64,000 nt of DNA from a virus: IMG/VR virus record IMGVR_UViG_3300034069_002176. One strand, 5' to 3'. A program made the position numbers and the translations under genes. Within the stretch, counting starts at the first letter, position 1. The number at the start of each line of letters is the position of its first letter. The notes below the pieces were generated by a model that saw nothing but the letters and a program-made list of their open reading frames with translations, was not told the origin of the DNA and searched no databases. This document shows, in pieces, positions 1,786-60,145 of this stretch.

Positions 1786-1806
1786 GTCACTACTCGGCGC
1801 TAGAAT
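1786..1806 (+). promoter_or_regulatory. Class II promoter GTC-N12-TAGAAT
   Basis: GTC 1786-88 + 12 nt + TAGAAT 1801-06, upstream of leader-family gene 1838. Confidence 0.7.
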
Positions 1807-1837
1807 TGACGAGCACGCTTCTTCGAAAGGCTTACTT

Positions 1838-2734
1838 ATGTCCAACCTGAATCCCGAGCTTCGCCCTGACAAGAATGGCAAGTTGGTTACCCGCCATGTC
1901 AAGCAGGACGAGCCAGTTTCTTTGAGGATCGTAGGTGCTAAGCCAGTTTCTCCCGCCGTTACTCCGAGCCGTATCACCACGGATACAAGCTATGACGTAG
2001 CACAGGAGGCGTTCGATGAACTGAATCCTGGCAACGAAGAGCTATTCGAGCATTTCTTCCTAGGTAGTACCGAAGAGTCAGATTACGAAGAGCAAATTCT
2101 TGCCGAAAATCCTGAGTTGGATTTTGAAGAAATCAAGCAGACTGCCCTCGCCAATGGCTTTACCGGCTATTGGCTTAACGACGAGAACCTGAATTTCCCT
2201 GAAGATGTAGAGCCTAAAATCGCATCGCGTGATTACGGCGATATCCTCAGCGAGCTTCAATTGATGAACAACACCACCCACGGATCAGAGGCGTTGCGAT
2301 TGGGTGACAACGACCTTGAAGTGTACGCAGCTTATGCCGAGCTAAATGGACCTGATGACGTGCAGAAGGTCGTTACGAATGCTGATGCAGCATACCGAGG
2401 CAGTTTCCGCGCGGATGAGGACTTTGCAGAGGACATGTTCGTTTCCACCTTCGGTTATTCCTCGCAGGAGGGTATCGAAGAACTCAGTAATCACATTGAT
2501 TGGGACCGAGTAGCCGTCAACATGACCCTTGACGAAATGGGCATCGAGGAAGACACCGATGAAGACGATGAGAACGGTTTAGATCGTTCTCCCACCGCCG
2601 ACGAAGCTCGTGATTATTTCGAGAACTCCATTGGTGATGTGTCCAGCATTTCCAACCTCGTCGATTGGAGCACCTATTCCCGTTCGGTGTTGAACGATTA
2701 CAGCGAATACAAGGGACACTACTTCCGTAATTGA
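1838..2734 (+). CDS. DKNGK-leader protein with ArdA-like antirestriction (DNA-mimic) body
   Basis: Start ATG 1838 after SD GAAAGG: MSNLNPELRPDKNGKLVTRHVK. Very acidic body; AYRGSFRADEDFAEDM, IDWDRVAVNM and VDWSTYSRSVLNDYSEYKGHYFRN resemble ArdA. Confidence 0.65.
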   Translation: MSNLNPELRPDKNGKLVTRHVKQDEPVSLRIVGAKPVSPAVTPSRITTDTSYDVAQEAFDELNPGNEELFEHFFLGSTEESDYEEQILAENPELDFEEIKQTALANGFTGYWLNDENLNFPEDVEPKIASRDYGDILSELQLMNNTTHGSEALRLGDNDLEVYAAYAELNGPDDVQKVVTNADAAYRGSFRADEDFAEDMFVSTFGYSSQEGIEELSNHIDWDRVAVNMTLDEMGIEEDTDEDDENGLDRSPTADEARDYFENSIGDVSSISNLVDWSTYSRSVLNDYSEYKGHYFRN

Positions 2735-2759
2735 GTTTACGCTCTAACTCTGGTAGTCT
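2731..2759 (+). promoter_or_regulatory. SigA-type promoter, leaderless start
   Basis: TTGAGT-N17-TAGTCT, 6 nt before ATG 2766. Confidence 0.55.
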
Positions 2760-2765
2760 CTAACT

Positions 2766-3668
2766 ATGACTCTGAGTTTTGATGCCGTGCGCGAAGCGCG
2801 CAACCGACTTCAGTATCTCGATCATCTCTTTGGCACGCCGGATAGCTGGGACTGTGGTGCTACATCAATCGATTCCGGTATTGGCGCACCATACAAATGG
2901 ATGCACACCAAAAGTAGGTTTGTTCCATGCAGCGTTGCAATGTACGACATGCTGTTCTCCGAAATGATTCCTGAGCACGAGGATGAATGGCGAGCATCTC
3001 AGCTTCGTTCCGTAGTCAAAGAAGCGAAGGGTGAGCGGTTCGATGTCGCACTGACCATTGACATCATTGTTGGTTGGATTCGCCGCCCCGATGTGTGGAA
3101 TGATGTCAGCAACAACGGTAAGTTCGTTGAGGTCAATGCACTGAGCACTGATGACGAGTCGCCGTTCTACACGGAGCAGCGATGGTCTCTTATGTGCAAG
3201 GCTGTTGCGACCAATAATTCGGTGATGCCGCGAGCCGCTATCGAATCACTAGATGACTCCATCTTCTCCAAAGAAGGATGGATGACAACGAACTACAACC
3301 GATTCGTCGAGGCGGCTATCGACCTTGACTACGATGCAAGTGTCGCCCGTATCCTCACACGCCCACTTATCAACATCGAAACGACAGATGACTTCATCGG
3401 AACGCTTGATACGAAATATGGTGATGCCCTACCGTGGCTTGCAGCTTTGGAAACGCTGATGTCCGAGAAGGTAAAATTTACCGGCAGCGAATACACGTTG
3501 CAGAAGAAGGTAGCGCGAAGCTACAAGAACAATCTCTTGCCAAAGGACATCATCAAGTGGGGTAAGCTCGGTGTACCTTTCGATCAGATGCTTGTTTATG
3601 CCAAGAATGGCATCGACGAAGATATCCTCAGCATGATGCTGTCAAGAAACCCAGGATTACCAGAATGA
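2766..3668 (+). CDS. Hypothetical protein with shared C-terminal GI..NGID motif
   Basis: 300 aa; C-terminus LLPKDIIKWGKLGVPFDQMLVYAKNGIDEDILSMM resembles ORFs 6320, 8301, 8915 and 23558. Confidence 0.75.
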   Translation: MTLSFDAVREARNRLQYLDHLFGTPDSWDCGATSIDSGIGAPYKWMHTKSRFVPCSVAMYDMLFSEMIPEHEDEWRASQLRSVVKEAKGERFDVALTIDIIVGWIRRPDVWNDVSNNGKFVEVNALSTDDESPFYTEQRWSLMCKAVATNNSVMPRAAIESLDDSIFSKEGWMTTNYNRFVEAAIDLDYDASVARILTRPLINIETTDDFIGTLDTKYGDALPWLAALETLMSEKVKFTGSEYTLQKKVARSYKNNLLPKDIIKWGKLGVPFDQMLVYAKNGIDEDILSMMLSRNPGLPE

Positions 3669-3738
3669 GTTGCATTATGAGTCGAAACCCGTATGATGTG
3701 GGAGTGCATATTGTGACCTATTTGTGGGGCGGTGAGAT

Positions 3739-4221
3739 TTGATGGCGGAACCGTCCCTCACCACCGAATCTCCGAACCTCCGTAACAGGTGGATTCGCTA
3801 CGTCCATACGGATGAAGAAACTGGTCGCGACAGCATTCAAGTGACTCAGATTGTCACCGTGGAAGTCATCTACGCTAGACCCCAAAGTCATCGCGATCTT
3901 GACCACACAGACAAGGCTTATGTCGAGTGGTTGATGAATCAAGATGGCAATGGGAAAATTGCTCAGTTGAACATTCTTACATTGTCTCCACAGCAGGTAA
4001 TCGATGACGATGACCCCGAAGTGATGATTAATGTCCCCTATAGCGCCCTGGGTAAGCCAGACAAGGTTGTTGAATTCTCACTTGCGACGGTGCCGGAAGT
4101 GCTCGCCACTATCAATCGCCTTGCTGAAAAACATCACGATCTAGTGAGCCGTCTGGTGGAGCATTACGGTCTCGTTAAGCTCACTGATGGTACTTACACG
4201 TTCCCTCGCCGTAACGGTTGA
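3739..4221 (+). CDS. Hypothetical protein
   Basis: 160-aa ORF with a TTGCAT..TATGAT promoter-like sequence upstream. Confidence 0.7.
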   Translation: MMAEPSLTTESPNLRNRWIRYVHTDEETGRDSIQVTQIVTVEVIYARPQSHRDLDHTDKAYVEWLMNQDGNGKIAQLNILTLSPQQVIDDDDPEVMINVPYSALGKPDKVVEFSLATVPEVLATINRLAEKHHDLVSRLVEHYGLVKLTDGTYTFPRRNG

Positions 4222-58870: not shown

Positions 58871-59169
58871 TCGAGATGCAGAAAAAGGCGCAGGGTATTC
58901 TTTCGCGTCTATCCGAAATTGACGAGAGCGATAGGCTCGAATGGCTGGCAAACATTCTCACTGATACCGCTTCCGAAGGCTGGCACCATCGAGATGATGA
59001 GAAGGGAACCTATTACGAAATCGGATGGGAGGACCCTAGTGCAGATGATGCGCAAGAAGACGGATGGTATGTCAGCCAGACGACTACTAGTAAGAGCCAC
59101 GCCTCACATACAGCTTACCGTTGGGGTTGTGAGTACCGCAGCGTGAGAACCAACCCATTCGAGCGTTAA
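58867..59169 (+). CDS. Small acidic hypothetical protein
   Basis: ATGA overlap with the upstream gene. Confidence 0.7.
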   Translation: MIEMQKKAQGILSRLSEIDESDRLEWLANILTDTASEGWHHRDDEKGTYYEIGWEDPSADDAQEDGWYVSQTTTSKSHASHTAYRWGCEYRSVRTNPFER

Positions 59170-59174
59170 CGGAA

Positions 59175-59205
59175 GATGGTCCGGCTCTAAACAAGCCGGA
59201 CCATC
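59175..59205. terminator. Bidirectional terminator
   Basis: GATGGTCCGGCT / AGCCGGACCATC. Confidence 0.75.
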
Positions 59206-59215
59206 CTCTTTTCTA

Positions 59216-60106
59216 CTACTCACCCATTGGTCCATAGCGAGTTTCGACTACGTTCCACATGAACATGTTCAACGCCGAGTTGCGCCCTGATTCCATAGCG
59301 TAGTCGCTGAAATCCCAACCTTCTGCCGCAGCGTCTACCTTTGCGGATTCCCACTCTTCGTCCGATTCCCACCGACTAGTTGCTTTATAGGAGTCGGGAA
59401 CGTCATCCCATAGTTTGTCAAGACCCTCTGGGCTCTGAATGACTGGGCTATTGTTCCAGATGTCTACAGTCACATCAGAAGATCCGCCATTTTCATTCCA
59501 GAACTTATCCAACTGGGCTGTTTTTTCTGGGTCGGCAAAGAACGCATCTCGAATTGTTGGGTGCGATGCGAGGTGGGTTTCTAGTTCTGCACGAGGAATA
59601 CGAGCGGCTTCATAACCACGCCATTCTTCATCTTCGGTGATCTTTTGTACGGTAATGTCGAGGTCTTCTCCATTGATTCCCAAGGCTGCGCCGATTTCAT
59701 TGCTGAGTTGGGCGGTATCGAAGGTTTCGCCGTCATTTTTAGCGACCTGCATCCAGCTAATACCATCCAGAGGCTCTCCATAGTGCCCGTTACGCTCCGT
59801 CACAGAGTTCTCGATTCTACCGCCCACTTCGATAGCCAGGCGTGTCGCCATCTCGTCGTCACTTTCGCTCCAAGCCCTGAAGTCGAATTTGGGGCTAGTT
59901 ACCCACAGGCTTACGAAGCTGCCCTTTTTGATACTGCCATCTGTCAGCGCCTTTTCGAATTCTGCATGAGTGGTTGGTACGTTTTTCTTGAACTGACCGA
60001 TGCTGCCAAGTGGGCGTGTGGGCGGCTTGGGCGTATCCGACTTCACCTTACGTGTGTAGTTTCTGCCGTTTTTGTCAACACCTGTTTTGATCACTAAATC
60101 AGACAT
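59216..60106 (-). CDS. DKNGK-leader protein, acidic body
   Basis: MSDLVIKTGVDKNGRNYTRKVKSD; SD TAAGGAGG. Confidence 0.85.
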   Translation of the reverse strand: MSDLVIKTGVDKNGRNYTRKVKSDTPKPPTRPLGSIGQFKKNVPTTHAEFEKALTDGSIKKGSFVSLWVTSPKFDFRAWSESDDEMATRLAIEVGGRIENSVTERNGHYGEPLDGISWMQVAKNDGETFDTAQLSNEIGAALGINGEDLDITVQKITEDEEWRGYEAARIPRAELETHLASHPTIRDAFFADPEKTAQLDKFWNENGGSSDVTVDIWNNSPVIQSPEGLDKLWDDVPDSYKATSRWESDEEWESAKVDAAAEGWDFSDYAMESGRNSALNMFMWNVVETRYGPMGE

Positions 60107-60124
60107 AGCAACCTCCTTACTCTC

Positions 60125-60145
60125 AGTGTAATGGTTACTTGCGAC
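60125..60145 (-). promoter_or_regulatory. Class II promoter GTC-N12-TACACT
   Basis: Minus strand GTCgcaagtaaccatTACACT. Confidence 0.7.

Follow-up and report, generated by a model that had tools for sequence, protein, structure and literature searches.

Introduction

Actinobacteria possess a group of promoters which the SigA holoenzyme by itself fails to recognise and which depend on the activator PafBC, a mode of activation termed "sigma adaptation" (PMC8635444). The motif found in vivo is 22 nt long, tGTCgg(N10)tA(N3)T, with the SigA -10 element as its 3' part and the so-called "-26 element" at -23 to -28 as its 5' part; a -35 element is missing, and conservation of the GTC triplet extends throughout the actinobacteria (PMC8635444). 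An older version of the consensus, known as RecA-NDp, reads tTGTCRgtg-8nt-TAnnnT (PMC5656591). In mycobacteria, the PafBC heterodimer takes up a position between the DNA and domain 4 of sigma after it has bound single-stranded DNA (ssDNA) via its WYL domains (PMC8635444, PMC11804915), and cryo-electron microscopy showed that the helix-turn-helix (HTH) domain of PafB reads the two guanines of the triplet via R46 and R50, while the HTH of PafC touches sigma domain 4 (PMC8635444; for these promoters, also named RecA-NDp or recA P1, see also Gamulin 2004; Mueller 2018; Mueller 2021, which is PMC8635444; Schilling 2025, which is PMC11804915). Here, we analysed a 64-kb stretch of DNA (IMG/VR record IMGVR_UViG_3300034069_002176; 51% G+C, 89 genes in our own gene calls), referred to as the window, which belongs to a very large phage-like element. 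In this window, genes whose products share an N-terminal tag are preceded by promoters of the form (T)GTCR-N11-TAnnnT, designated class II to set them apart from the canonical TTGACA-N17-TAnnnT type (class I). Judged by their sequence, the class II sites are probably promoters of the PafBC type, and we consider the PafBC of the host their probable reader.

Two other systems share parts of this layout. T4 middle promoters keep the housekeeping -10 element and have, 11-13 bp further upstream and instead of a -35, an activator box; they serve a separate class of phage genes. The MotA box of T4 is of the TGCTT type; T4 encodes both factors involved and remodels sigma domain 4. The WhiA/WhiB promoters of Streptomyces, characterised by GACAC, likewise combine an actinobacterial activator with SigA. 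The WhiA motif is said, in the 2023 work of Lilic et al., to lie upstream of the -35 and not in the spacer.

Two promoter classes in the window

To begin with the evidence that is independent of any motif, all 3-mers were enumerated at all offsets upstream of those TAnnnT hexamers which lie 4-50 nt before called starts, both in the window and in a relative. The two top signals were TTG at offset 23 (z = 17.9), where TTGACA-N17-TAnnnT has its canonical -35, and, with z = 13.2, GTC at offset 15. Since this enumeration puts both signals on top, the window and its relative hold two promoter classes. The same count over the whole sequence, not limited to gene starts, was drowned by coding periodicity.

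On both strands of the window together, GTCR-N11-TAnnnT occurs 23 times, compared with 13.1 ± 3.6 matches expected from dinucleotide-preserving shuffles, and 13 of the 23 matches sit before tagged genes with the end of the hexamer 6-31 nt upstream of the ATG. All 13 sites had been pointed out in a preliminary description of this DNA, and each is present at its place with GTC exactly 12 nt before TAnnnT. The purine reported after GTC is found in 13/13 sites and the T reported before it in 10/13; besides, a G stands two bases upstream of the -10 hexamer in 10/13. Equally real is the variant with GAC in place of GTC upstream of 39660 (39617-39637). Together with this variant and two sites in front of untagged genes (17940 and 36104), the window contains 16 promoter-like class II sites, all of which are intergenic. 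Canonical TTG-type promoters had been assigned to ten further positions and are found at nine of them (2766, 5316, 8301, 24414, 27707, 38353, 55636, 57092 and the tRNA); none was found within the 75 nt inspected at 47262.

Class II promoters are coupled to a protein tag

The 16 tagged genes of the window encode an N-terminal segment of roughly M-x(2-6)-TP-IVDKNGKxTTVHK. The comparison of tagged with other genes, proposed earlier as a check, gives a clear answer: the motif precedes 13 of the 16 tagged genes vs 2 of the 72 other genes (Fisher p = 4.5e-11). Three tagged genes are without the exact motif, namely 39660, which has the GAC variant, 25740 and 40256. For the latter two it had been stated that they follow other tagged genes, and this holds, as 25740 begins 4 nt past the stop of tagged gene 24900-25736 and 40256-40741, which has no promoter of its own, lies 131 nt downstream of tagged gene 39660-40124.

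The same coupling is found in a relative that was identified via a DNA pattern for the tag, the 202,737-bp IMG/VR record IMGVR_UViG_3300034069_002177 (referred to as G001), which has no nucleotide similarity to the window except in the tag-coding stretch. Here, the motif precedes 13/19 tagged vs 4/171 other genes (p = 1.3e-12). With a looser initial pattern, the matches to tag-coding DNA among viral contigs were mostly due to chance. A metagenome scan for the tag yielded 108 loci with a total of 698 kb and 203 distinct tagged genes. GTC-N12-TAnnnT is located 4-60 nt before the ATG in 128 of these 203 genes, with 2.9 expected from shuffles, and in 79 of the 97 that have no same-strand gene end within 60 nt upstream. 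A loose TTG-type promoter (TTGnnn at 16-18 nt) precedes 4/203 of them, with 8.9 expected, and TTGAC none (0/203). Conversely, at least 88 of 112 distinct strict TGTCR-N11-TAnnnT sites with an open frame after them precede tagged genes, and several of the remaining ones precede diverged variants of the tag; this set of 112 is biased to tagged loci, and the counts from the window and G001 are free of that bias. Apart from a few other genes, only the tagged family uses class II. The earlier proposal of a distinct promoter class with a housekeeping -10 and an activator box in place of the -35, dedicated to the tagged genes, is therefore borne out.

The bodies of the tagged proteins are diverse. 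Pfam assigns one to DUF7226 and one to DUF6900 and gives one weak HD-domain match, and most have no family match, including a protein which had been taken as ArdA-like at first reading. This diversity would fit an accessory or counter-defence role. Searches with the tag itself remained without result: the 45-aa tag had no tblastn match among sequenced phages and plasmids, a literature search for the tag word DKNGK returned nothing relevant, and look-alikes of the tag from language models and structure were uninformative. The sole match in a species genome, in a metagenome-assembled genome (MAG) of Thermoleophilaceae, lies inside an Ig-like repeat and was dismissed as chance.

Two smaller features accompany the tag. 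About 12-15 residues after its HK, most members have a second conserved element, R-[VTIA]-x-x-[VL] (for example QRVPA, NRVAAV or SRTSRL), and because of this element the leader may be ~45 residues long. In addition, the ribosome-binding word (C)GAAAGG occurs in the 25 nt before the start of 8/35 tagged vs 14/243 other genes in the window and G001 (p = 0.0025), and at 37 of the 203 tagged metagenome genes.

Conservation and anatomy of the class II sites

Closer syntenic relatives of the window are an 805,269-bp JGI contig, which carries the closest orthologue, and several Logan contigs. Three promoters could be footprinted against their orthologues; they retain GTC, the -10 and the 12-nt distance and differ in the spacer (e.g. 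ctactcggcgc vs gatatgattgc). The spacing is strict among the relatives, with 91 sites having N11 after GTCR vs 0-6 sites for any other spacing from N8 to N15. Their commonest core variant with one mismatch is GAC, the same as at 39617 in the window, in which both guanines are retained. This spectrum of variants fits the read-out of the guanines by PafB that is known from the structure.

A logo of the 128 tagged-gene sites from the relatives, with the hexamer numbered -12 to -7, defines the 5' box as T at -28 (70%), GTC at -27 to -25 and R at -24 (71%), followed rarely by A at -23. There is no preference for G at -23 to -21, and information of at most 0.1 bit at -36 to -29 means that there is no -35 element. 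Further downstream, G is found at -14 in 66% of the sites, corresponding to the actinobacterial GnTAnnnT form of the -10, and A is found at -9 and -8. The predicted +1 is an A in 101/128 sites (79%), with a pyrimidine at -1. The distance between -10 and ATG reaches up to 57 nt among the relatives, and in 33 sites the ATG is located exactly at the predicted +1. Of the 93 sites whose gene has a 5' leader, 68 (73%) show an A at +1 and 75% a pyrimidine at -1, so that the start signature is not due to leaderless genes alone. These sequence features mark TAnnnT as a genuine -10, with the transcript predicted to start 7 nt past the hexamer. The start codons of the tagged genes are fixed by the positions of the promoters, with several being leaderless.

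Comparison with PafBC promoters and other known systems

In letters, spacing and position, class II sites match the PafBC consensus: GTC followed by 12 nt to TA is equal to TGTCR followed by 11 nt. GTC, 12 nt and TAnnnT are present in 13/13 window sites, and by sequence the -10 is of the SigA type and the -35 is lacking, as in PafBC promoters of Mycobacterium and other Actinobacteria. In the flanks, T at -28 and R at -24 are preferred over the 128 sites; the "g/gtg" at -23 to -21 is not, and the published consensus gives it in lower-case letters, denoting a conservation of at most 50%.

Two controls used real genomes. Upstream of recA, GTC-N12-TAnnnT, mostly as tGTCa/g, is present at 14 of 26 sampled Actinomycetota genomes, with ~0.13 matches per locus by chance (the sample includes genomes G003 and G050, on which no locus or claim is based). 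TGTCR-N11-TAnnnT exceeds its reversed control on actinobacterial chromosomes, with 104 vs 34 matches in a 9.2-Mb genome and 60 vs 16 in a 3.0-Mb genome. For the 0.2-Mb G001 the numbers are 26 vs 8, and the excess density is ~6-12x that of the chromosomes. Unlike the known PafBC promoters, those described here are not chromosomal: they are carried by a mobile, phage-like element of very large size, and they drive one tagged family mostly without known function instead of repair genes.

A new promoter class is not supported: box, spacing and -10 agree with those of PafBC-dependent promoters already described. What appears to be new is that a mobile element uses a known promoter type so densely and almost exclusively for a single tagged family; in the library searches made, no phage or plasmid described as wiring a protein family to PafBC came up.

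Several points weigh against this assignment. Mycobacteria and the Streptomyces-like genome G056 show a weakly conserved "gg/gtg" after GTC, for which there is no counterpart at the class II sites; among the sampled actinobacterial genomes, G033 is likewise without "GTG". The cargo of the class II promoters does not resemble classical repair genes, and no convincing LexA/SOS box was found in the window and none alongside class II sites. Moreover, the presence of pafBC in the host is an assumption, and both PafBC dependence and induction by damage are predictions from the sequence match. A search for RNA runs that contain this DNA gave none. Finally, the window is ~1/10 of a 654-kb contig, and a reader encoded by the element could lie elsewhere on it.

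Regarding T4, the analogy drawn in the preliminary description holds for the architecture, and a comparison with AsiA/MotA is also made in the PafBC study (PMC8635444). The likeness ends there, as the box is TGTCR, corresponds to that of a host activator and comes with no factor found on the element. WhiA or WhiB, the other readers proposed earlier, are not supported by the letters. GACAC is present at 39617 only, GTGTC at 2/13 window sites and G at -29 in 44/128 of the relatives' sites, meaning that neither GACAC nor GTGTC is required, and the box at -28 to -24 falls within the spacer.

Candidate readers and alternative explanations

The preliminary description also proposed an activator or sigma factor encoded by the phage. 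In our searches, G001 (203 kb) gave no Sigma70_r2 and no WYL match; Pfam results for ~84 of the 89 window genes, partly among the top 25 families listed, contained no sigma, WYL or obvious activator; and tblastn with PafB and PafC queries from a Thermoleophilaceae MAG had no match in ~965 kb comprising the window, G001 and the metagenome loci. Because no WYL/PafBC or sigma gene was found in these parts of the element, the PafBC of the host is the likeliest reader, with ssDNA or DNA damage as the likeliest trigger. The suggestion to look for WhiB or sigma genes elsewhere led to a single WhiB-like gene in G001 and to no sigma factor. This gene (184361-184942, +) codes for 193 aa with the WhiB domain (26 bits) at the C-terminal end, and by the patterns used it lacks promoters of class I and class II alike.

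An element-encoded factor that reads the TGTCR box, for instance a diverged PafB-like winged HTH, another activator or a sigma-remodelling pair similar to AsiA/MotA of T4, would turn class II into a middle or late class in the style of phages. We consider this unlikely, though it is the strongest of the alternatives. Only about a tenth of the contig is visible, most genes here are without family assignment, and the missing "gtg" extension could reflect a different reader. WhiB-like proteins bind sigma domain 4, and one is present in G001. Nevertheless, such a factor escaped all the searches above and would have had to converge on the triplet, the spacing and the -10 of PafBC. A middle or late timing is possible, but the predicted trigger is ssDNA or DNA damage and not a timer protein of the phage.

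Negative regulation, with the GTC box as operator half-site of a repressor on "-10-only" SigA promoters, is improbable. Many actinobacterial promoters function without a -35 (PMC8635444), and the G at -14 creates an extended -10 which might suffice alone. However, the box is a single asymmetric 5-mer in one position and one orientation with no partner half-site, and in the sole solved system the same architecture is dependent on an activator (PMC8635444).

Common descent, by which a cassette of promoter and tag was copied before many genes and has no present regulatory meaning, could draw on the tag-coding DNA as the sole stretch similar between window and G001 and on the moderate enrichment of GAAAGG at tagged genes, but is very improbable given that the 13 window sites share nothing beyond box and -10, that the distance from -10 to ATG varies, and that orthologous spacers diverge while box, spacing and -10 stay, a constraint repeated over the 128 sites from many contigs. 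Other motif families were rejected: a -10 of an extracytoplasmic function (ECF) sigma factor (CGTC) would need a -35 at 16-17 nt upstream, which is absent, the -24/-12 elements of sigma-54 misfit in their letters next to a clear TAnnnT, and a Spo0A-like 0A box and a half-site of CRP disagree in motif and spacing.

Proposed mechanism and implications

The class II sequences show a hybrid promoter, with T-GTC-R at -28 to -24, exactly 12 nt from GTC to the TAnnnT of a housekeeping GnTAnnnT, and a pyrimidine/A start signature that lies 7 nt past the -10; a -35 is absent. With PafBC of the host as the reader, this host would be an actinobacterium with PafBC, and the element, having no PafBC of its own, would borrow the factor. 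The host enzyme could transcribe genes with canonical TTGACA-N17-TAnnnT promoters right away, with no need for an ssDNA signal. The tagged genes, i.e. ~16 in the window and the majority of the 203 in the relatives, would stay silent until ssDNA appears. Possible sources of ssDNA are DNA damage in the resident state, intermediates of replication or transfer, and nuclease attack on incoming DNA of the element.

It is conceivable, albeit on a tentative level, that PafBC of the host serves a very large phage-like element of actinobacteria as a switch, so that ssDNA from replication, transfer or nuclease attack fires ~100 or more tagged effectors. Given a site density ~6-12x that of chromosomes, the element might compete with host repair genes for PafBC, and the lysine-rich tag could couple the proteins to a process of the damage state such as packaging or clearance by the Pup-proteasome. 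The near one-to-one coupling of tag and promoter suggests that an ssDNA-rich state is required for the tagged proteins to act or to be tolerated. Packaging, localisation to ssDNA and Pup-proteasome clearance as roles of the tag are speculation; after the response, other proteins of the PafBC regulon undergo pupylation.

If the assignment is correct, a supposed new phage promoter class is replaced by a named and structurally understood mechanism, and a mobile element would tie a whole protein family to the host sensor of DNA damage and ssDNA, keeping it off constitutive promoters. Moreover, well over 100 natural, diverged promoters of the PafBC type would define the key positions, namely T-28, GTC, R-24, G-14, TAnnnT and Y-1/A+1. 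The question of the tag is narrowed as well, to a function that would be wanted only when ssDNA is present.

The element and its host

The window's own protein lies on a 654,127-bp contig, and both this contig and the 805,269-bp JGI contig are far larger than the 203-kb G001. The element may be a huge phage or a megaplasmid; the conclusion on the promoter is independent of the type of element. In favour of a huge phage, G001 stands among the viral records of IMG/VR and carries, on one strand at 64.9-81.9 kb, 64 tRNA genes in an array together with a tmRNA (tag ANASRNDFALAA), the window encodes a suppressor tRNA(CUA), and the best database match of a helicase from the window is a 440-kb jumbo phage. 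The array fills a stretch of G001 and makes it look gene-poor; recoding of TAG, TGA or TAA was considered as the cause and rejected. Against a phage, no Terminase_6N or HK97 capsid family was found in G001, 20 large G001 proteins searched against PHROGs and Pfam showed only replication and helicase functions and no virion gene, and there is a conjugation-type ATPase, AAA_10. A near-identity search of the window among sequenced phages gave no match.

The WhiB domain, DUF732, DUF2510, LytR_cpsA_psr, the GnTAnnnT form of the -10 and frequent leaderless starts each point to a host within the Actinomycetota.

Apart from the tagged family, Pfam identifies a concentration of genes for RNA and tRNA repair, scattered over the window (RNA ligase, Tpt1/KptA, Thg1, RlaP, HAD_SAK_2 and PTH2), next to NAD salvage (PnuC, NadR), PARP-WGR, NUDIX and AP endonuclease. 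Tag and class II promoter are absent from all of these genes.

Individual promoters in the window

The three sites compared with orthologues are 1786-1806 (+; GTCA-N11-TAGAAT, 31 nt to the ATG of tagged gene 1838-2734), in which box, spacing and -10 are kept and the spacer has diverged, 4571-4591 (+; GTCA-N11-TACTAT, 19 nt to the ATG of tagged gene 4611-5279) and 11879-11899 (-; GTCG-N11-TACAAT, 23 nt to the ATG of tagged gene 10863-11855 (-)). The site at 24856-24876 (+) belongs to tagged gene 24900-25736 and probably serves tagged gene 25740-26285, too. Leaderless geometry is found at 31042-31062 (-), where 6 nt separate the -10 from the ATG of tagged gene 30133-31035 (-), and at 45310-45330 (+) before tagged gene 45337-45978. 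Tagged gene 34318-35115, encoding the DUF7226 protein, is preceded by the motif at 34267-34287 (+), and tagged gene 39660-40124 by the variant GACA-N11-TAGACT at 39617-39637 (+), which keeps both guanines of the triplet that PafB reads.

Two class II sites stand back to back in the 121-bp intergenic region 42244-42366 between divergent tagged genes, with 42267-42287 (-) before 41633-42244 (-) and 42322-42342 (+) before 42366-42920. The remaining tagged genes with the motif are 42975-44030 (site 42933-42953, +), 48649-49473 (-) (49496-49516, -), the DUF6900 gene 57368-57799 (-) (57820-57840, -) and 59216-60106 (-) (60125-60145, -). The two untagged genes are 17986-18681, which encodes a 231-aa protein without Pfam match (site 17940-17960, +), and 36131-36541, which has leaderless geometry and a product with a weak, sub-threshold match to the Cys/His family DUF5763 (site 36104-36124, +).

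A further intergenic match, GTCG-N11-TACACT at 20156-20176 (+), is probably not the promoter of gene 20334, which has its own TTGACT-N17-TAAAGT. There is no start codon nearby, and the match could be due to chance, a second promoter with a long leader or a promoter of a small RNA. Leaderless geometry is also found in class I, as the -10 ends 6 nt before the ATG in the promoters at 2725-2760, 5275-5310, 8260-8295, 27666-27701 and 57051-57086, which have spacers of N17/18 and of which four are of the TTGAC type and one has TTGAGT.

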